Positions 7,740-64,000 of a DNA stretch of 64,000 nucleotides are shown in pieces. The stretch's first letter is position 1; each line of letters starts with the position of its first letter. The notes below the pieces were generated by a model that saw nothing but the letters and a program-made list of their open reading frames with translations, made no database searches and was not told where the DNA came from. The position numbers and the translations under genes were made by a program. Origin of the DNA: Actinomycetes bacterium (lineage in GTDB: Bacteria; Actinomycetota; Acidimicrobiia; Spongiisociales; UBA5794); the NCBI GenBank assembly GCA_024638645.1, contig JAHEJX010000003.1, positions 1,395 to 65,394 of the forward strand, in the 5' to 3' direction.

Positions 7740-9146
7740 ATGAAGGTAGCCAGAGTCGTCGCCTTTGTCCTTGCCGTTGTGGTCGCGCTCGCGGCAATTG
7801 GGCTTCTCGTAGGCGGCGCCGCCCTGACTTGGGCGCATACAACGCAGCGCGATGCGGATGGGTTCCTGTCGAGCCCCTCCTACGAATTGGAGTCGGAGGC
7901 ATACGCAATTGTCTCGGAGGACATCGACTTGGCTTCGCGGCCTGGTGACTGGTGGCCGGGGCATATAGCGGATGTCAGGATCACAGCGAGCTCGTCGGCT
8001 GAGCTGTTTGTCGGGATTGGCCCGACGGCAGATGTCGACGTTTACCTGACCGGGGTGGGCCATGACCTTGTGACAGATCTGGGCGTTTCCGCATCCGACG
8101 TTGCATACCGATCTGTTGCAGGCTCCGCTCCAACCGAACTGCCGGTCGACCAGGACTTCTGGGTGGCGACGAGCTCAGCGGGGGAGGCGTTGACTTGGGA
8201 CCTTGCCCAAGGTGAGTGGACCGTCGTGCTGATGAACTCTGACGGATCTGTCGGAGTCGGGACTGTGGCCGTCGTCGGCGTCAATATCGGAGGCGTGCTG
8301 CTGGCCGTCGGTATCGGCCTGATGGTTGGCGGCCTCTTCGTAGGTGCGCTGGCCGCCGCAGTGATGATCTGGGCCAGCCATCGTCGGAGCGATGAAGAAG
8401 AGTACGCGGCGGTTTCGCCGCTTCCCGTCGGTGTATATCCGGCGCGTCTCGAGGGGGACCTCGATCCGAACCTGAGCAGAGGCCTGTGGTTGGTGAAGTG
8501 GTTCCTGGCGATACCGCACTTCATAGTGCTCGCGTTCCTATGGGTGGCCTTTGTTTTCGTGACGGTCTATGCGTTCTTCGCGATCGCCTTCACCGGGCGC
8601 TACCCACGCGGCGCCTTCGTCTTCAACGTCGGAGTGCTGCGCTGGACGTGGCGTGTCAGCTTCTATGCCACAAGCGCAATTGGCACCGATCAATACCCGC
8701 CCTTCACGCTTGCTGATGTCGATTACCCGGCACGGTTCGCAGTGGAGTATCCGGAAACCCTTTCGCGGGGTCTCGCTCTCGTGAAATGGTGGCTGCTGGC
8801 GATCCCGCACTACCTGATCATCGGTGTATTCACGACCGGCCTGATCTGGTGGACCACCGAGTTGGACGGCAGCACCGCCGCCCAGGTCGGCGGCGGGCTC
8901 ATAGGTTTGCTCGTCATCGTGGCGGGTGTCGCATTGCTCTTTACAGGCCGCTATCCGCAGGGGCTCTATGACCTGATCATGGGCCTCAATCGTTGGGTCT
9001 ATCGGGTGGCGGCATACGCCTCGCTGATGACCGATGAGTATCCGCCATTCCGGCTGGATACAGGAGGTAGTGAGCCCAAACCGGTGATGCCTCCGCCACC
9101 GGATCCAAAGGATGCTCCCGACAGGGAGCCGATGCTGACCGGCTGA
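7740..9146 (+). CDS. membrane protein with two DUF4389-like modules
   Basis: It has an N-terminal TM anchor plus an extracytoplasmic region. A module is then duplicated internally (LSRGLWLVKWFLAIPHFIVL...FTGRYPRG...YPPFTL and LSRGLALVKWWLLAIPHYLI...FTGRYPQG...YPPFRL), which I recognise as DUF4389-type. Confidence 0.7.
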   Translation: MKVARVVAFVLAVVVALAAIGLLVGGAALTWAHTTQRDADGFLSSPSYELESEAYAIVSEDIDLASRPGDWWPGHIADVRITASSSAELFVGIGPTADVDVYLTGVGHDLVTDLGVSASDVAYRSVAGSAPTELPVDQDFWVATSSAGEALTWDLAQGEWTVVLMNSDGSVGVGTVAVVGVNIGGVLLAVGIGLMVGGLFVGALAAAVMIWASHRRSDEEEYAAVSPLPVGVYPARLEGDLDPNLSRGLWLVKWFLAIPHFIVLAFLWVAFVFVTVYAFFAIAFTGRYPRGAFVFNVGVLRWTWRVSFYATSAIGTDQYPPFTLADVDYPARFAVEYPETLSRGLALVKWWLLAIPHYLIIGVFTTGLIWWTTELDGSTAAQVGGGLIGLLVIVAGVALLFTGRYPQGLYDLIMGLNRWVYRVAAYASLMTDEYPPFRLDTGGSEPKPVMPPPPDPKDAPDREPMLTG

Positions 9147-55462: not shown

Positions 55463-56395
55463 GTGAGGCGATCGCTGCAACTGCTGAACCTGGCGGTGGC
55501 TGCCGGCCTGATCGCTGTCGTCGTAGCCGTATACCGGCCGTGGGAAGTGTGGAGCTTCGAGATCAGCTTTTTCGGTGCCCTCGCCACGGCGCTGGTGTTG
55601 GAAGTCTTGCTTGTCCTTGTTTGGGCGAACCGCCACTCTTTGGTTTTGCGCGAGGCGGGAGCCGCCATCCCGGCTCGGAAACTGCTCTGGCTGGTGACCT
55701 TCTCGGGCACGGCCAACAGCCTCACTCCGGCGGCCACGGGTGAAGTTGCCCGAGCGTGGCTGCTGCACCGAAACTTCGGCGTTGCCGTGGAACAGTCTGC
55801 CGGCGCCATCCTGTTCGAACGGGTCTTCATGTTCGGGTTCATGGCGCTGACCGCGCTCTCCGCCGGATTGATCGCTTCTGGAGGAACCGGCTGGCTCAGT
55901 GCCCTCGGTGGCGGTGCAGTCATCGTATACGTGGTCGGCACGCCCTCGCTCGTCGGCCTGTTGGCACCACGGCAACCGACGAGTGATGAGAGCAGCGTGC
56001 GGAACCGGATTCGCTCGGTGCTCGCCAGAGCGTCCGATGTCTGGTCGAATCGGCGCGCCACGCTGCTCACGGCCCTGTGGAGTGCGGCTGCATTCGCCAT
56101 CATGGGCACGATCTTCAAGATCGCCGCAGATAGGGTCGGTCTCGAACTCGACGCCATGACTGTGTGGGCGCTGGTCGGTGGAGCCACCGCGGCCGGCGTG
56201 TTGTCGGCCCTCCCTTTCGGTCTCGGTGCCGCCGAATTGTCCGCAGTTGGGATCGGCGCCCTGATCGGCCTGGACACCCAGGCTGTGGCCGCAGCCTTCG
56301 TCATGTATCGGATCTTGTTCACACTCCCGATCGCCGTGGCCGGCAGCGTGGCTTATGGACGCCTCATGCTGTCCGACGGGTCGAGCTCAACGTGA
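55463..56395 (+). CDS. polytopic membrane protein, flippase-like (UPF0104 / LPG-synthase-TM type, tentative)
   Basis: 310 aa with about 8 TM helices, positioned directly after the GT2. The family call rests on architecture and context, not on a strong motif. Confidence 0.45.
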   Translation: MRRSLQLLNLAVAAGLIAVVVAVYRPWEVWSFEISFFGALATALVLEVLLVLVWANRHSLVLREAGAAIPARKLLWLVTFSGTANSLTPAATGEVARAWLLHRNFGVAVEQSAGAILFERVFMFGFMALTALSAGLIASGGTGWLSALGGGAVIVYVVGTPSLVGLLAPRQPTSDESSVRNRIRSVLARASDVWSNRRATLLTALWSAAAFAIMGTIFKIAADRVGLELDAMTVWALVGGATAAGVLSALPFGLGAAELSAVGIGALIGLDTQAVAAAFVMYRILFTLPIAVAGSVAYGRLMLSDGSSST

Positions 56396-58352
56396 CCGTC
56401 CACCGGCAGTCGTGGCGGGCACGGTGAGCGTGCATCTCGTCTTGGGCTTGGTCTTCCTTGTCTCACTGTTCGTTGCGCCGTCAATTGCGATCTACGCGTA
56501 TCTGGTGAGCCGGCCCAACCGGGCGGCGCATCGTGAAGGCGATCTGCTCGCCGCGGTCGTGCTCGTGGCGGCAACGGTGGTTCTGGGGTTACTGGCGCTC
56601 GCCCGCCTAGGCGCCATCTCGTTGGTGTCGGTTTGGCTCATTGCCGCCGGGGCTCTTGTGGGGAGCGTCTTTGTTCTCAGGCGACAGGCCGTCGAATCAG
56701 CTCCTTTGTCGACGATTTCTCAGATGCGGACGGGACTGCTCTTTGCGGGAGGCGTCGTGATCATTGCGGCGCCCGCTTTGTGGACGATCTTCGGTCGGCT
56801 TGACAGCTTGAATCGAATCTCGGCCTGGTTCTATTGGCAGCAGATTCAACAGTTCATATCCGTCGGTGGCTTCTCCGGCTCGAGTTTCGAATGGGGCGTT
56901 GTCACCGCGGCCTTCGAGCACCACCTCGCCTTCACTGCGCTCGGAGCTGCCACAGCCGAGGCCTCCGGTGCGGCCTCTTCTCTCGCCGGCGCCCAGGCGA
57001 TCCGAATCGTTGCAGGCCTGGCCATGCCCGGTTCCGCCTATCTCGCCGTGCGTTCGTGGCGAGGCGGGCGCTGGGCCGCCGTGGGTGCTGCGCTCCTGGT
57101 TGCGGCGATAAGCGTCACCGCCACCAAACCGATCGGGTTCGTGCCTGAGGGCCTTGGGCACATCCTGGCGATGCTGACTGTGGGGCTCGTCTATCCAGCA
57201 CTCATCGAACGGTCGCGAGCTGCACAAGCTGCGCTCCTGGTCGGCATGGTTGCCACGACCCAAGTGCACGGAATCGCAGCGACGTTCCTATACCTAGTCG
57301 TCGCTGCCGCTCTTCTCGCTTTTGTGGCACTGCCGGACACGGGCCGGAGTAGCAGAGTGAGACTTGTGTTCGCGTTGGGAGCTCTCTCAATAATCGGCGC
57401 TCTACTCGTCGGTCAGACCCTGGGGGCCAGGGCGTCTGATGCTGCCATCCTCAGCGATGCGGCAGAGCTCGACGCCGACGGGTCGGACCCCACTTGGGAG
57501 TTCGTTCTGTGGGCCAACACCCGAGGCAGGCTGAGCGAAGCCGAGCTCGCAACGACTCCGCCCGACAACGGCGAGCTGCTCCGCAACTCGTTCACCCGTG
57601 TCTTCATCAGGGCGGACGGTTGGTGGATAGAAGCGGGGTTTTTCCTGGCGCTCGCCGCGGCCGGCGTCTACGGCGCGGCTCGGCACGGCAATCGGTCGCT
57701 ATTCCCTCTGTTGACGGCGCTGCTCGCCGTCCTTTTTGTCGTGATTGCAGGGGCCGCACTCTCGTTGCCTTATGACACGTACGTCCCTCGCCGAACCGGG
57801 CTGCAGCGACTTGTTCAACTGTGGCCAATCTCTGCCGCCGTGCTTGGCCCGCTGCTCGTTGATCGGCTCCGCAAGAAGGAACCCCTGACCGCGCTGCTGA
57901 CGGCTGCGGTCTTGCTGTGGCTGGTGGCTGCGGGCGGCGTCACCAGCTTGAACCGCAACCATGCCACCCGCGAGCAGGTGCGCGAGCTGGCAGCCCTGCC
58001 CGTTCCGGATGGCGCCCTGATTCTGACCAACGGGTGGACCCAGGGGGCCATCGCCGGAATGACCTCGGGGGGCATCGGTCTCCTTGACGGGCAGGCGCCC
58101 TACCTCAATCCCGAGCTGTTGCCACTCAGCCTCGAAATGCTCGCCGATATACGTGAGTTCTTCATCAGGCCGAGAGGCAACTCCGACATTCCGGGGAAGT
58201 ATGGAGCGGACTTCGTGTTGGTGGCGCAGCGCTCGAATGCGTTTGGCGGAGCCAGGGTCTATAGCGCAAGCGACGATCGCCTCGACCTGACCAGGACGCT
58301 GCAGGCGCTATATCGCAGCGACAACTACACCCTCTATTCCGTCACGGATTGA
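56355..58352 (+). CDS. large polytopic membrane protein (GT-C-like glycosyltransferase candidate)
   Basis: 665 aa with more than 12 TM helices and a soluble C-terminal ~130 aa. The start is uncertain: an ATG at 56355 overlaps the previous gene by 41 nt, and in-frame GTGs occur at 56412 and 56424. Confidence 0.5.
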   Translation: MDASCCPTGRAQRDRPPAVVAGTVSVHLVLGLVFLVSLFVAPSIAIYAYLVSRPNRAAHREGDLLAAVVLVAATVVLGLLALARLGAISLVSVWLIAAGALVGSVFVLRRQAVESAPLSTISQMRTGLLFAGGVVIIAAPALWTIFGRLDSLNRISAWFYWQQIQQFISVGGFSGSSFEWGVVTAAFEHHLAFTALGAATAEASGAASSLAGAQAIRIVAGLAMPGSAYLAVRSWRGGRWAAVGAALLVAAISVTATKPIGFVPEGLGHILAMLTVGLVYPALIERSRAAQAALLVGMVATTQVHGIAATFLYLVVAAALLAFVALPDTGRSSRVRLVFALGALSIIGALLVGQTLGARASDAAILSDAAELDADGSDPTWEFVLWANTRGRLSEAELATTPPDNGELLRNSFTRVFIRADGWWIEAGFFLALAAAGVYGAARHGNRSLFPLLTALLAVLFVVIAGAALSLPYDTYVPRRTGLQRLVQLWPISAAVLGPLLVDRLRKKEPLTALLTAAVLLWLVAAGGVTSLNRNHATREQVRELAALPVPDGALILTNGWTQGAIAGMTSGGIGLLDGQAPYLNPELLPLSLEMLADIREFFIRPRGNSDIPGKYGADFVLVAQRSNAFGGARVYSASDDRLDLTRTLQALYRSDNYTLYSVTD

Positions 58353-59074
58353 TCAGTCTGCCGAGCTATTGTTACGCACCTTTCCGCCCTCCATCACACA
58401 GGACCACCATGACCAATCGGAAACAGGCGCGGGTTCGGCAGCTGAGCCGCGCCTCACTGGTGATCAACTTTCTGACCTTCCCGTTTCGAGCGCTATTCAT
58501 TCGCCAGAGCGACGCCCGCCTGATGACTTCGCTTCGCAGCGAGAGGATGCACTACTCGGCACAGCACGTTCGTGGCGAGACTCTCGACATTGGGTGCGGC
58601 CCTCACAACGTGTTCGTTGATCAGTGGCTCGCCGGCAACGGGAAGGGCGTGGATGTGCATCTGTATGACGGCTTAGAGGCCTCCCACATCGCAGATATGA
58701 CGGACCTGCCACTTTCAGATTCCGCTTTCGACACGGTGACGATGATCGCGACCATCAACCACATACCTGCTCCAGAACGCGAACAGCAGCTGGCCGAGGC
58801 GTTTCGGGTGCTGCGATCCGGCGGCAACATCGTGGTGACTCAACCCAATCCAGTCGCCGGGTACCTCGTGCACAAACTCGTGCACTTCTACTCGGACCTC
58901 GGTACCCACGACAGCATGGATCACGAGCGGGGCATGGAGGATGAAGAGGACCTGTACATGCGCGACCGCCAAATCCGGGCTTTGCTCACAGGCGCAGGCT
59001 TCACGAACCTGCGCAAAACCTATTTCTGGTCCCAGTGGGGCCTCAACCATCTGATCAGCGCAGACAAGGCATGA
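58349..59074 (+). CDS. class I SAM-dependent methyltransferase
   Basis: Motif I is TLDIGCGPHN, and the post-I/II region is AFDTVTMIATINHI ... LRSGGNIVV. The TTG start overlaps the previous stop; an alternative ATG lies at 58409. Confidence 0.75.
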   Translation: MISLPSYCYAPFRPPSHRTTMTNRKQARVRQLSRASLVINFLTFPFRALFIRQSDARLMTSLRSERMHYSAQHVRGETLDIGCGPHNVFVDQWLAGNGKGVDVHLYDGLEASHIADMTDLPLSDSAFDTVTMIATINHIPAPEREQQLAEAFRVLRSGGNIVVTQPNPVAGYLVHKLVHFYSDLGTHDSMDHERGMEDEEDLYMRDRQIRALLTGAGFTNLRKTYFWSQWGLNHLISADKA

Positions 59075-59138: not shown

Positions 59139-60950
59139 GTGACCGATTTCATTACCGGGCTCCTGGCGCTCGCCGCCCTCTATTGGTTGCCTGGAGCAGT
59201 CTTTCTGCGTCGCGCGCAGATTGATCTGCCGAGCCGTCTCGTAGGTTCTGTCGTGGTTTCCTATCCAGCTGTGACCGCTCTCACGGTTCTACTCGGAGCG
59301 GCCGGTGTGCTCTCTCAGCTCACGCTGCTGCTCGTTCCGGTGGTTCTCGTCGGAGCTGCTGCCGCGTTCCCGCTTGGCGCCGAAGTGCTCGATGGGCAGC
59401 AGGCCGACGGTCTGAAGGCTCCGCTGTGGGCCGCCGCCGCCGTTGGTGGGCTGGCGATGGTCCAGGCGCTGCGCCCAAGGTTGTATCGGCTCTTCGACGC
59501 CATGACGACGTGGGCTCCGTGGTCTCGAGAGATCGCCGATTCGGGTGACCTCGCACCGGCATTCATTCAGACATCTGTGGAGGGATTCCCCCCTTCCGTT
59601 GCTCTCATTGCGGGTACGGGATCGCTCCTCACCGGTGGATATGTCGAGACGCACACCTTCCTCGTCCACCCGCTCTTCACCGGGCTCACTTTGGTGACGG
59701 TGGTGCTGCTTGGCGGGTACTTCGCCGGGCGCAGCGGAGGTTGGATTGCACTGCTCGTTGTAGCCGCCACACCCTTACTGGAGCGCGGGATGATGTTCCA
59801 TGACGACCTCGTCGTGAGTTTTTTCACGTCGGCAGCCGTGCTGCTGGCAATTCGAGCAACCAGACCTGCCGGCTGGGCGCTGGCGGGAGCAGCCGCCGGC
59901 GCGGCACTCGCCGTCAAACACCTCGGCGTCGTCGCCGTCTTGCTTGGTGCCGTGGTGCTCTTCACGAGGCGTCCGTCGTGGCAGAGCTGGCTGGCCGCGG
60001 CGGCGGCCTGGCTGGTGGGCCTTCCCTGGTATCTCTGGAACGTCGCCCGTTTCGGCAACCCGGTCTATCCCATGTTCTCCGGGTTCTTCGGTGAGTCGCC
60101 CGAGGTTGTCAGGGTTGTGACGGCGAGAGACGCCAACTTGCAAGCCGTCGGGCGGGGCGCGCTCAGCGAGATCGGACTTCTTGCCCTTGCCGCCGTACTG
60201 ACGGGGGTCGTAGCGGCATTTCTGCGAGCCAAGCGGGAGCGGAATCCCATAATGCTCAGATTCAGTAGTTCCCTGGCGGCAGCCGTTGCCCTGTACCTGG
60301 TGGTCTGGGAGACATCCGGATACGCCACGCGTCATGTGTTGATAGTGCTGCCCGCTGTCGCGGCACTTGCTGGATACGGCTTGGGCGGCCAGTCACGCGA
60401 CACCGATCCATTTTGGCGAAGACATCTTGCGCCTCTGGTTGGGATCGCTGTACTCGCCGTATTCACGGTGTCGAGCATATTGGTTGATGTCGCCGGCGAC
60501 GACGAGCCCGGCGAGGCGTTGCAGACCGGCGTATACACGCTGCTGGCCGGCAAATCCGGACTCGAGGAGATCGTCTCTCCTCCAACTGAGTTGTCGGAGA
60601 TGTACGGGAACTCAGGTGTGGCCTGGGAACTGCTCACAAACTCTGACCCTGAACCGCTCGTGCTCTCCGTCGACGGACGCACGTACTACTACCCCCAACA
60701 GACCTTGGTCGGCCTCGACGTCCGCGCCCTTGCCATATTCGACGGCGCCAATCCCGTATCGCGACACGCCGCAGCTATTGAGGCCGGCGTCGGTTACGTG
60801 ATCGACAACCGCTTACTTCGCTCCCGGCGGTCCGACGACCTGCTGGCTGCGAACGCCTTTTGGAGGGATGTGCGAAGGAGGCCCCTGCTGTACGAGGAGA
60901 TCTTCGCAGGGGGCAGCATCGTCCTATACCGTGTCCTTCCGCCCAACTAG
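59139..60950 (+). CDS. large polytopic membrane protein (ArnT/PMT-like GT-C candidate)
   Basis: 603 aa with about 12 TM helices in the first 400 aa, then a soluble C-terminal domain. The call rests on architecture only. Confidence 0.5.
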   Translation: MTDFITGLLALAALYWLPGAVFLRRAQIDLPSRLVGSVVVSYPAVTALTVLLGAAGVLSQLTLLLVPVVLVGAAAAFPLGAEVLDGQQADGLKAPLWAAAAVGGLAMVQALRPRLYRLFDAMTTWAPWSREIADSGDLAPAFIQTSVEGFPPSVALIAGTGSLLTGGYVETHTFLVHPLFTGLTLVTVVLLGGYFAGRSGGWIALLVVAATPLLERGMMFHDDLVVSFFTSAAVLLAIRATRPAGWALAGAAAGAALAVKHLGVVAVLLGAVVLFTRRPSWQSWLAAAAAWLVGLPWYLWNVARFGNPVYPMFSGFFGESPEVVRVVTARDANLQAVGRGALSEIGLLALAAVLTGVVAAFLRAKRERNPIMLRFSSSLAAAVALYLVVWETSGYATRHVLIVLPAVAALAGYGLGGQSRDTDPFWRRHLAPLVGIAVLAVFTVSSILVDVAGDDEPGEALQTGVYTLLAGKSGLEEIVSPPTELSEMYGNSGVAWELLTNSDPEPLVLSVDGRTYYYPQQTLVGLDVRALAIFDGANPVSRHAAAIEAGVGYVIDNRLLRSRRSDDLLAANAFWRDVRRRPLLYEEIFAGGSIVLYRVLPPN

Positions 60951-61596: not shown

Positions 61597-61723
61597 CGGC
61601 CGATACCGGCGATCAGGTTTTCGGAGCTTCTGCGGATCCAGCAGGAAATCCTGTGTCTCTCACAGAATATCCGAGTCGGTTCAATCCTTGAATCTGCGCC
61701 AAACGCAGGATACACTGCAATAA

Positions 61724-62089
61724 GTGCAGGATATTACGCCTCTATTGCGTACGGCAACGTTGAAAGAGCTACTGATTGAGCTGTTCTTCCTCTCTGACAA
61801 GCCGCGAACCCTCTCAGATTTGGCGAGGGCCATCGATGTGGATCAGACGACCGTAATGAGAGAGGTCAACCGCCTTCTCGAGACCGGAGTTGTGGTCGAG
61901 GAACGGGTCGGAAGGTCCCGAACCATCGCCATCGACCCCTCGAGTCCCATCGCCGGGCCACTACGGCGCCTCGTTCGGCTGGCCCATGAGCCCCCGGAAG
62001 CCGCGTCAGGACGTACCGAAGGGTTCAGCCCGATGCACGCCGAGCGTGCCGAGCGGCGACCTCTGCCCTCCTCCCGGAGGAGGAACTAG
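61724..62089 (+). CDS. winged-helix transcriptional regulator (ArsR/MarR-like)
   Basis: RTLSDLARAIDVDQTTVMREVNRLLETGVVVEERVGRSR is an HTH plus wing. It has a GTG start, and its stop abuts the rpiB ATG. Confidence 0.6.
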   Translation: MQDITPLLRTATLKELLIELFFLSDKPRTLSDLARAIDVDQTTVMREVNRLLETGVVVEERVGRSRTIAIDPSSPIAGPLRRLVRLAHEPPEAASGRTEGFSPMHAERAERRPLPSSRRRN

Positions 62090-62686
62090 ATGCCACTTCC
62101 GACCGAGGCAGATGTGCGGGCGCTTGTGAGCCAGATCGTTGCCGGCCTGCAGCCGGAGCAGGACGCTCCGCCAGGCGGCGCTCCAACTTCTGCACCTACT
62201 GCAGCAAGTCCGGCGCCAGGCACCAGGATTGCCATCGCGATCGGCGCAGATCACGGCGGATACCCGCTCAAGGAGCGCATCGGGTTTCACCTGCGCGAGC
62301 TGGGCCATGAAGTCATCGACTGCGGAACCGACAGCGGCGATTCCGTCGACTACCCGGACTTTGCCCACGCCGTGGCACAGCGGGTGTCGAGCGGCGCGGC
62401 CGCATGTGGTGTGATCGTCGACGGGGCCGGGATCGGTTCCTCAATGGTCGCCAACAAAGTGCCCGGCATAAGAGCCGCGCTCTGTTACGACATCTCGAGT
62501 GCACGCAACAGCCGCGAGCACAATCACGCCAACGTCCTGACCCTCGGCGCCGGACTCATCGGCAACGGGCTCGCCCTCCAGATTCTCGACGCCTGGCTCG
62601 CTACGCCGTGGGCCGAGGGGCGCCATGCACGTCGCGTCGACAAGATCAACGACGTTGAGCGCCAATATCTGAGGAGCGCTTCATGA
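62090..62686 (+). CDS. rpiB: ribose-5-phosphate isomerase B (RpiB/LacA/LacB family) with a 44-aa N-terminal extension
   Basis: The core is [14 protein letters not shown]...L...[37 protein letters not shown] and REHN.ANVL.LG. The extension is an amphipathic helix ([15 protein letters not shown]) plus a Pro/Ala linker. Confidence 0.85.
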
Positions 62687-63531
62687 CCAACGAAGCCCTC
62701 GTCGAAGCCGTCACCAAGGAGGTGCTTGCGGCACTGCGGACCACCGACCCGTGTGCAGACTGTCACGGATCATGCGCGGCGCACTCGCCGGACAAGGTGC
62801 GCAGCGTTGTCGCCAATGGGGCCGACCGGGTCAGCTTCAACGGGCACGCCTCCGATGTCCCGAGTGATCTCGCCAAATACATCGACCACACCCTTCTCAA
62901 ACCGGACGCCACCGAGGCGGACATCGACGAGCTTTGCGCTGAAGCTGTCGAATACGGATTCGCCTCGGTGTGCGTCAACCCGACATGGGTGAAGCGAGCT
63001 GCTCAAAACGTGCGGGGCAGCGCGGTTCGAGTCGCCAGCGTGATTGGCTTTCCCTTCGGCGCCACCCCGCCGGAAATCAAAGCAATGGAGGCAAGGCGCG
63101 CGATTCGTGACGGGGCTCGTGAGATCGACATGGTCATCAACGTCGGGGCGCTCAAGTCGGGTGATCACGATCTGGTTCGCAATGACATCGCCAAGGTTTC
63201 CGATGCTTGTCACGAGGCGGGAGCCTTGAACAAGGTCATCATCGAGACATCGCTGCTGAGCGATGAAGAGAAGGTCATGGCCAGCCATCTGGCGCAGCTC
63301 GCCAAGGCCGATTTCGTAAAGACATCGACTGGTTTCGCCGGGGGAGGCGCCACGGTTCATGACGTGCTGCTGATGCGCGAGACAATCGGCCCCAAGATGG
63401 GTATCAAGGCATCGGGCGGAGTACGCAGTAGAGAAGACGCCGAGGAAATGATCGCTGCCGGGGCTACTCGGATCGGCGCCTCGGCCGGAATTGCCATCGT
63501 CACGGGAGGCACATCCAGTGAGCAATATTGA
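62683..63531 (+). CDS. deoC: deoxyribose-phosphate aldolase with a ~60-aa N-terminal extension
   Basis: The core is [41 protein letters not shown] (Schiff-base Lys), GIKASGG and RIGAS. The extension has an amphipathic helix ([15 protein letters not shown]) and CADCHGSC. Confidence 0.9.
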
Positions 63532-64000
63532 GTTGCGGTCGTTTGTCTTTCTAGACAGCCTCCAGCCGCAGTACGCCGCATTCATCGGCACGACGGCCTC
63601 GGGCTTCCTGCCCCTGGCGTACGAGACTTCGTTGTTCGTCGAGATCTCACCCGGCATCGAGATCAACCGGCTCACGGACATCGCCCTCAAGTCGAATTCG
63701 GTCAAGCCAGGAATGCAGATCGTTGAGCGTGTTTTCGGGCTGCTCGAGGTGCACTCTCCCGATCAGGCCGAGACTCGGGGAGCGGGGCAGGCAATTCTCG
63801 ATGCAATCGGGTTGAAAGAGGCCGACCGCCTCAAACCGAAGATCCTCTCCAGCCAGATCGTCCGCAACATCGACGATCACCAGGCGCAGCTGATAAACCG
63901 CATGCGCCACGGGCAGATGATCACGCCGGGTCAGACGCTTTACGTGCTCGAGTGCCTTCCGGCGGCCTACGCCGCGTTGGCCGCCAACGAAGCTGAAAAG
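63518..64000 (+). CDS. bacterial microcompartment shell protein, tandem BMC-domain type (3' end outside window)
   Basis: It is not in the ORF track because there is no stop within the window. The GTG at 63518 has GGGAGG 8 nt upstream, and the frame is open to base 64000. My translation is [60 protein letters not shown], then [21 protein letters not shown]. It aligns with the BMC-H pattern ([26 protein letters not shown]..G....G....V.V.GDV.AV..A). Confidence 0.7.

Follow-up and report, generated by a model that had tools for sequence, protein, structure and literature searches.

The window analysed here, a 64,000-nucleotide stretch of contig JAHEJX010000003.1 from the Acidimicrobiia assembly GCA_024638645.1, ends in the beginning of a bacterial microcompartment (BMC) operon. 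Segment 61694-64000 most probably represents the 5' part of a metabolosome operon of the sugar-phosphate-utilising (SPU) class, subtype SPU3, from an uncultured sediment Acidimicrobiia (probability about 0.88). It encodes a small winged-helix regulator, an RpiB-family protein (RPI), deoxyribose-5-phosphate aldolase (DERA, the DeoC protein) and a double-stacking tandem permuted shell protein (BMC-Tdp) that is cut by the window edge. An earlier reading made from the letters alone, termed here the original prediction, had proposed the start of an SPU-class microcompartment with a regulator, RpiB, DeoC and a truncated tandem-BMC shell gene. All four genes are present where it placed them, and the class is borne out by the DERA and RPI cargo, the BMC-Tdp and the syntenic relatives. 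The assignment to SPU3 is made by gene content, with the genes past BMC-Tdp taken from relatives, the formal criterion of the subtype being the colour clades of the shell proteins (BMC Caller).

The features of the segment are summarized in Table 1. The four plus-strand genes run from 61724 to the window end with zero intergenic space: the TAG of the regulator abuts the ATG of RpiB, the RpiB stop and the DeoC start overlap in ATGA, and DeoC and the shell gene overlap by 14 nt. A pfam01791 DERA, a pfam02502 RpiB-type protein and a BMC shell gene are found in one cluster, the combination by which SPU loci are recognized. Shine-Dalgarno sequences are located 5-8 nt upstream of the last three starts, namely GGAGGAGGA (ATG 62090), GAGGAG (ATG 62683) and GGGAGG (GTG 63518). 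The G+C content of the window is 62.7%. Its closest relatives in a genome-collection scan with DeoC are metagenome-assembled genomes of Acidimicrobiia, and near-identical sequence is present in sediment metagenome runs.

Table 1. Features of the operon start in the window, with their positions and the evidence for each
Feature	Positions	Strand	Basis
Promoter-proximal part of the operon	61694-64000	+	operator/promoter and four genes, the last cut by the window edge
Putative operator/promoter, two 15-bp palindromes around a -10-like hexamer	61694-61729		sequence pattern
Small winged-helix-turn-helix regulator, ArsR/MarR type, 121 aa	61724-62089	+	MarR_2 9e-07, HTH_20 3e-06 (weak, at threshold)
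SPU-type RpiB/RPI, 198 aa	62090-62686	+	Pfam LacAB_rpiB 5e-54 (residues 49-186); Pfam and NCBIfam together span 48-191
RpiB N-terminal helix, putative encapsulation peptide, residues 5-20	62102-62149	+	conserved motif
RpiB Pro/Ala/Ser-rich linker, residues 21-47	62150-62230	+	length and sequence poorly conserved among L001-L026
SPU-type DERA/DeoC, 282 aa	62683-63531	+	TIGR00126 7e-83, 277 bits against a cut-off of 117, residues 63-273
DERA N-terminal helix, encapsulation-peptide-like, residues 3-18	62689-62736	+	conserved across phyla
DERA Cys/His cluster C24-A-D-C27-H28-G-S-C31-A-A-H34, putative metal site	62752-62784	+	local form of C-x2-C-x3-C-x3-C(P)
Conserved segment between Cys cluster and barrel, DERA residues 38-51	62794-62835	+	VRxVVxxGAxR
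CcmP-like BMC-Tdp, residues 1-161 of ~208	63518-64000	+	NCBIfam NF053796 3.8e-80; PDB 4ht5 8.5e-66

The open frame of the shell gene was absent from the list of open reading frames because it has no stop codon within the window, as the original prediction had noticed, and the CcmP matches confirm it as a BMC protein. The fragment is ~60% identical to CcmP over 159 residues, is 86% identical to a full-length 208-aa protein of a relative (L004), and also matches, over its whole length, the BMC-T proteins of Haliangium ochraceum (1e-55 to 1e-59), CsoS1D and the RMM protein MSM0275. In the alignment, Glu70-Arg71 (63725-63730) coincide with the Glu-Arg pair at the CcmP pore, a pair that, as Cai and co-workers are said to have reported in 2013, acts as the gate. 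Passage of large phosphorylated metabolites has been proposed as a role for BMC-Tdp proteins of the CcmP/CsoS1D type. The call of a CcmP-like clade is drawn from the best family model and the best structure match rather than from a tree or colour clade. The Pfam BMC model PF00936 gives no match on the 161-residue fragment, even at E=10, a result that formally speaks against the original prediction, which had named this search as a check. When the protein is complete, as in one relative, the part recognized by PF00936 is limited to residues 143-199 and the score is below threshold, so the miss reflects a limit of the model; the motif at which the original prediction had placed a second domain does open that domain. 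These observations carry a warning for annotation: Pfam BMC misses the CcmP-like shell protein, and its best NCBIfam match is the carboxysome protein CcmP, just under the cut-off.

The genes expected past position 64000 were read from relatives, comprising 80 loci from the genome-collection scan with DeoC and one further locus, L081 (92% identical), from a protein search; all carry numbers with the prefix L. More than 25 of them are syntenic, with DeoC 66-92% identical to that of the window (L001 and L081 at 90-92%). The order RPI, DERA, BMC-Tdp (208 aa), BMC-H (~95 aa), BMC-P, aldehyde dehydrogenase (486 aa), BMC-Ts, BMC-P, BMC-P is invariant in L001-L026 and L081, and the flanks outside this nine-gene core are not conserved. 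Wherever the sequence of a syntenic relative reaches far enough, aldehyde dehydrogenase (Pfam Aldedh), BMC-H and BMC-P follow downstream. The dehydrogenase is of the EutE type (NF011927, 611 bits); the match begins at residue 25, leaving a 24-aa extension whose N-terminus is a conserved helix, xSExEIQAIIxRV. Three EutN_CcmL (BMC-P) genes are found in L004, L081 and the other relatives, the BMC-Ts of L004 has zero cysteine, and BMC-H carries KAAK and RPH motifs. The same genes are accordingly expected after BMC-Tdp in the window operon: BMC-H, BMC-P, aldehyde dehydrogenase of the EutE type with a helix at its N-terminus, BMC-Ts lacking Cys, and another two BMC-P. The original prediction had listed aldehyde dehydrogenase, a PduL-type phosphotransacylase (PTAC), BMC-H and BMC-P as the missing downstream genes. 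The dehydrogenase and shell genes are there in the relatives; neither PTAC/PduL nor PduS nor alcohol dehydrogenase was found in their core operon or within 6 kb downstream in L081. The lack of PTAC fits SPU3, which has none. Homologues of E. coli DeoA and DeoB were not found near the Acidimicrobiia loci, the single DeoA match being in L045. In L006 (12098-13554) the match to aldehyde dehydrogenase is split between two frames (query residues 1-311 and 308-486), owing either to a frameshift or to misassembly.

The SPU class goes back to Axen et al. 2014, who first defined it, and was expanded to more than 280 loci from 26 phyla in the catalogue of Sutter et al. 2021 (Nat Commun 12:3809). The predicted gene content of the window operon, completed by the downstream genes of its relatives, matches the published SPU3 subtype point by point. 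The SPU3 entry (Sutter 2021, Supplementary Data 2) has no PTAC and includes Actinobacteria among the host phyla. As predicted for the window operon from its relatives, SPU3 loci combine aldehyde dehydrogenase with a pfam01791 DERA and a pfam02502 RPI, the latter upstream of DERA, and both aldehyde dehydrogenase and DERA bear N-terminal encapsulation peptides. For the shell, the entry likewise lists a single standard BMC-H together with a BMC-P triplet; its BMC-Tdp is CcmP-like, and its BMC-Ts comes without pore Cys or PduS. A CcmP-like BMC-Tdp is given as a feature of SPU2 and SPU3 (Sutter 2021), and SPU subtypes without PTAC tend to carry BMC-Tdp (Dwyer, Sutter & Kerfeld 2024, Commun Biol 7:1562, PMC11585597; hereafter Dwyer 2024). 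The differences are that RPI and DERA, separate genes in the window, are fused in 12-20 of the catalogued SPU3 loci, and that the winged-helix regulator and palindromic site of the window go unmentioned in the catalogue text that was compared.

The biochemically characterized counterpart is the SPU6 locus of Chloroflexi bacterium GWB2_54_36 (Dwyer 2024). It shares the gene order regulator-RPI-DERA with the window, as well as a DERA extension of 60-70 residues that starts with an amphipathic helix, conserved DERA catalytic residues, and an RPI with an N-terminal helix, a linker and a change of the catalytic Cys to Asp. In contrast to the window and its relatives, the SPU6 regulator is of the GntR/UTRA type, the encapsulation peptide of the SPU6 aldehyde dehydrogenase is C-terminal, and the BMC-Tdp belongs to another clade. 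The window DeoC is 55-60% identical to those of Chloroflexota loci, and the biochemistry concerns the SPU6 protein, not that of the window. SPU6 DERA was measured to be active on deoxyribose 5-phosphate and a DERA-RPI complex was shown in vitro with SPU6 proteins (Dwyer 2024, PMC11585597), so the statement of the original prediction that SPU function had been derived only bioinformatically is outdated.

The model shell of Haliangium ochraceum (PDB 5v74, 5v76, 6n07) consists of BMC-H, three BMC-T and three BMC-P, and its BMC-T are among the proteins matched by the window fragment. The H. ochraceum aldehyde dehydrogenase is phylogenetically near those of SPU5/SPU7, and its BMC-Tdp near those of SPU2/SPU3/SPU5 (Sutter 2021). 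The main H. ochraceum loci, unlike the window, are without DERA and RPI and have no assigned function; a compartment of this type was considered for the window and rejected. The CcmP and CsoS1D structures (PDB 4ht5, 5lsr, 3f56) come from a carbon-fixing context, in contrast to the catabolic context here. With the encapsulation peptides of the Pdu and Eut systems (Fan et al. 2010; Aussignargues et al. 2015) the window helices share the pattern acidic-x-x-hydrophobic-hydrophobic-x-x-hydrophobic-hydrophobic, and the RpiB helix, as in those systems, leads into a linker of low conservation; the window helices resemble the sequences of PduP and PduD. The DERA helix differs from the Pdu/Eut arrangement in that a Cys/His cluster and a further segment, both conserved, come after it instead of a free linker. 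A further difference is that the literature offers no demonstration of encapsulation for an SPU cargo, and the window peptides are putative, as read from sequence.

RpiB carries ~47 extra N-terminal residues relative to housekeeping versions, and none of 22 solved RpiB/LacAB sequences aligns ahead of residue 36-49, in agreement with the claim of the original prediction that both enzymes bear extensions foreign to their housekeeping forms. Most of L001-L026 carry the helix motif P-[ST]-E-x-E-[VI]-R-x-[LV]-V-x-[RQ]-[IV]-V N-terminally. In the textbook arrangement of an encapsulation peptide, a helix precedes a variable Pro/Ala/Ser linker, and the RpiB N-terminus has that predicted arrangement; a typical encapsulation peptide and linker are described for SPU RPIs in general (Dwyer 2024, PMC11585597). 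The catalytic Cys66 of E. coli RpiB is replaced in the alignment by Asp111 (codon 62420-62422), and His99 is kept as His144, as are the other E. coli residues checked, namely the Asp-His pair of GADHGG and those kept as Arg178/His179/Arg182. All SPU RPIs have Asp at the catalytic Cys position, and the SPU6 RPI, alone or with DERA, showed negligible ribose-5-phosphate isomerase activity (Dwyer 2024, PMC11585597).

RPI is regarded as a probable non-catalytic adaptor, a role taken from the SPU6 proteins. The alternative that it is an active isomerase on another sugar phosphate, with Asp111 as the base, feeding or draining a second substrate, is unlikely but deserves a real share of belief. Apart from Cys66 the checked catalytic residues of E. 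coli RpiB are retained, RpiB enzymes are promiscuous, the RpiB of M. tuberculosis has a carboxylate base (Dwyer 2024), and the whole RPI domain, 60-85% identical among relatives, is under strong purifying selection. The negligible activity of the SPU6 protein on ribose 5-phosphate, even in complex with DERA, weighs on the other side, together with the fact that no enzyme of the locus connects an RPI product to DERA or aldehyde dehydrogenase, and that SPU5 works without RPI.

The DERA catalytic residues Asp149, Lys213 and Lys242 are intact and correspond in the alignment to D102, K167 and K201 of E. coli DeoC, and the barrel is modelled confidently by AlphaFold2. Ahead of it stand ~62 extra residues; none of 37 solved DERA sequences aligns ahead of residue 55-66. 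Nearly all of the best 120 database homologues of DeoC are 281-291 aa long with a query coverage of 96-100%. All SPU DERAs have an N-terminal extension, often missed by automatic annotation (Dwyer 2024, PMC11585597). A six-frame reading of the 80 related loci finds the DERA helix motif L-[IV]-E-A-[VI]-T-x-E-V-L at the N-termini, and for RpiB the helix P-[ST]-E-x-E-[VI]-R-x-[LV]-V-x-x-[IV]-V. The original prediction had taken both extensions as the classic form of encapsulation peptides; that description fits RpiB alone, with its helix and variable Pro/Ala linker; in DeoC the conserved Cys/His cluster and VRxVVxxGAxR follow the helix.

The cysteines of the DERA extension occupy fixed positions, -22/-21, -19, -15 and -11 relative to the conserved GAxR, in 68 anchor-aligned loci, and at least three Cys are present in 54/69 loci from many phyla. 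In the majority the arrangement is C-x2-C-x3-C-x3-C, in many cases with Pro next to it, and C-x-C-H-x6-C-C-P-D-R is among the variants; the window DERA has Ser at the fourth Cys position, and the Cys segment is deleted in one Acidimicrobiia clade (L015-L026). In the segment that follows, V39, R40, V43, G46, A47 and R49 are invariant in 60 homologues, and the G, A and R of GAxR are at least 97% conserved in the 68 loci. This segment has a predicted local distance difference test (pLDDT) score below 50 in the AlphaFold2 model. The model, built on a shallow 60-sequence alignment and with pLDDT <60 in the extension, supports neither the published "two strands" nor clustering of the Cys residues. 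When the 62-residue extension was searched by phmmer against 1.84 billion cluster representatives, only 37 matches were obtained, mostly N-terminal fragments and none on another enzyme. The Cys cluster would most naturally be a metal site (Zn or Fe-S). The cluster appears to be undescribed: Dwyer 2024 mentions cysteine only for RPI and in the methods, the main text of the Asgard SPU preprint makes no mention of cysteines, and no Cys motif is noted in the compared portion of the SPU catalogue entries (Sutter 2021).

RPI and DERA form one continuous frame in L028, L032-L034, L036, L037, L045, L054, L058 and L076; in these fusions, of a type known from SPU3, the DERA helix and Cys cluster lie between the two domains. 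In L035, L040, L043, L044, L057 and L062 (Myxococcales, Riflebacteria and Ozemobacter-type) an extra domain of ~200 residues precedes DERA and starts with a helix resembling an encapsulation peptide; Hodarchaeales compartments are reported to have a flavoprotein-like fusion, and the extra domain may be of that kind.

Three readings compete with the SPU3 operon for the locus as a whole. Ordinary cytosolic deoxyribose/pentose-phosphate genes standing beside a shell gene, with extensions produced by mis-called starts, would be in keeping with the frequent misplacement of starts by gene callers in high-GC genomes and with the silence of Pfam BMC on the shell fragment. This reading is very improbable and is refuted by several observations. 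The long starts have Shine-Dalgarno sites, and in-frame start codons are lacking near the domain boundaries (none past codon 13 in RpiB and none past codon 39 in DeoC), so that an N-terminal extension remains under any choice of start. Both extensions are conserved as protein in dozens of relatives and across phyla; together these points indicate that the called starts are not artefacts, the objection that the original prediction had raised against itself. The genes moreover overlap one another and the shell gene, RPI has the SPU-specific change of Cys to Asp111, and the shell fragment matches CcmP at 8.5e-66. That the shell gene marks a carboxysome, as its best NCBIfam model and its best PDB match, both CcmP, might suggest, has a practically negligible probability, although automatic annotation would probably call it 'beta-carboxysome protein CcmP'. 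The CcmP equivalog cut-off of 340 bits is not reached by the window fragment (268 bits) or even by the full-length L081 orthologue (321 bits), and the protein is therefore designated CcmP-like rather than a carboxysome protein. Its neighbours are DERA, RPI and EutE-type aldehyde dehydrogenase, neither RuBisCO nor carbonic anhydrase is among the operon genes or the listed downstream genes of L081, and a CcmP-like BMC-Tdp is typical of SPU2 and SPU3. A remnant, or another SPU subtype, with downstream genes missing or rearranged or with PTAC or PduS present, is improbable without being negligible. In its favour, the window edge falls within the shell gene, one relative (L006) has a frame break in aldehyde dehydrogenase, and accessory enzymes vary between SPU subtypes. 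On the other hand, all relatives with enough sequence, including L001 and L081, share the nine-gene order without PTAC, and the four window genes are intact and translationally coupled.

The assignment to an SPU3-type operon has to bear several further points that weigh against it. The window stops at shell residue 161 and covers no more than the first quarter of the system, and aldehyde dehydrogenase and the other shell genes are seen only in relatives. An exact 51-mer from the window end found no match in metagenome contigs, the contigs from the source sediment runs are short low-depth fragments that reach at most ~100 bp past the window edge, and the exact DeoC and RpiB sequences of the window matched no database record. 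The absence of PTAC, PduS and alcohol dehydrogenase covers the core operon of the relatives and the 6 kb downstream in L081. The literature holds no experiment on SPU3 or on any native SPU organelle. The amphipathicity of the extension helices, which the original prediction had stated for RpiB, is moderate and lends weak support: hydrophobic moments are 0.41-0.56 overall, 0.41 for the RpiB helix (equalled by 12% of shuffles) and 0.53 for the DERA helix (3%), and AlphaFold2 models DERA residues 3-18 with a low pLDDT of 50-58. With hydrophobic moment and AlphaFold2 support both weak, conservation is the stronger argument for these helices. The cofactor exchange route and the role of RPI in the mechanism are hypotheses.

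The mechanism proposed for the SPU3-type compartment is built on homology to the characterized SPU6 proteins (Dwyer 2024) and on general metabolosome logic. Deoxyribose 5-phosphate, from the breakdown of DNA or nucleosides, would enter the shell and be split by DERA into glyceraldehyde 3-phosphate and acetaldehyde, the latter being held by the shell until aldehyde dehydrogenase converts it to acetyl-CoA with formation of NADH. As neither an internal PTAC nor an NAD-recycling enzyme is encoded, acetyl-CoA, CoA and NAD(H) would probably cross via the large gated BMC-Tdp pore. RPI would bind DERA and contribute a canonical encapsulation peptide, and together with the helices on DERA and aldehyde dehydrogenase it would drive aggregation and encapsulation of the cargo. 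SPU compartments, one of the most widespread kinds of metabolosome, are believed to salvage deoxyribose from environmental DNA; the literature so far reports neither the isolation of a native SPU organelle nor its connection with a growth phenotype. The DERA extension and the RPI peptide with its linker, pointed out in the original prediction, are already described in Sutter 2021 and Dwyer 2024. The locus adds a sediment Acidimicrobiia member of SPU3 to the more than 280 catalogued loci and raises no question beyond theirs.

Two features of the locus, the Cys cluster described above and the regulatory region, do appear to be undescribed. The regulator has only weak NCBIfam subfamily matches; it also stands directly 5' of RpiB in L001-L003, L005, L007 and L009 (48-82% identity). 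Two palindromes, CTGCG-N5-CGCAG (61694-61708) and CTGCA-N5-TGCAG (61715-61729), flank a -10-like TACACT (61711-61716), whose end is separated by 7 nt from the regulator GTG; this GTG falls within the second palindrome. The composite CTGCR-N5-YGCAG, repeated twice, occurs once in the window, and 0/100 shuffles match it. The core bases of the palindromes are invariant across 7 loci in an otherwise unalignable intergenic region. The palindrome is located at or just upstream of the regulator start in the loci that encode the winged-helix regulator (L001: 7824-7859), and the loci without this regulator have no copy near the operon. A third copy, CTGCACCTACTGCAG, is located at 62190-62204, in the coding region of the RpiB linker, and L001 has an extra copy at the equivalent place (8340-8354, +115 from the RpiB start). 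No Shine-Dalgarno sequence was found ahead of the regulator start at 61724, and the regulator mRNA may therefore be leaderless. A scan for consensus promoters and terminators gave nothing meaningful.

The regulator probably binds the double palindrome over its own promoter and start codon; the position of the palindromes over the regulator start and the restriction of copies to regulator-bearing loci suggest autoregulation on a leaderless transcript. The double palindrome with its winged-helix regulator appears to be undescribed, and the pair could serve as a handle for finding the inducing metabolite in this clade. We tentatively combine the two features into one proposal, to which we give somewhat less than an even chance: that the SPU DERA extension is an encapsulation helix joined to a metal-binding module (Zn or Fe-S; ancestral form C-x2-C-x3-C-x3-C-P, in at least 10 phyla and secondarily lost in one Acidimicrobiia clade) and that, separately, an undescribed winged-helix regulator binding the double CTGCR-N5-YGCAG on a leaderless promoter controls the operon of the clade. 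If this is true, the metal module could couple aggregation or encapsulation of the cargo to metal or redox state and might account for the insolubility of full-length SPU6 DERA in E. coli. A Cys cluster in the targeting extension of the signature enzyme would be a modest lead for the whole SPU class.

Other genes are found 5' of RpiB in other clades: a GntR-like regulator in L010, L011, L013 and L014, a divergently transcribed MerR/excisionase-like helix-turn-helix protein in L012, L015, L017-L019 and L022, and an EamA-family transporter in L004 and L006. Control of the nine-gene core appears to have been swapped repeatedly between clades.

Upstream of the operon, the window encodes two large polytopic membrane proteins without a Pfam match, at 56355-58352 (665 aa) and 59139-60950 (603 aa), with a methyltransferase gene (58349-59074) between them. 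These genes are not operon neighbours in the relatives and appear to be unrelated to the operon. We also note that in the sediment runs the most conserved parts of RPI (62491-62571) and BMC-Tdp (63625-63705) reach a word depth of ~80-108, as compared with 4-6 elsewhere (10-20x), and that variant sequences occur at loose ends in the same runs; several related SPU loci probably coexist in the sediment community.

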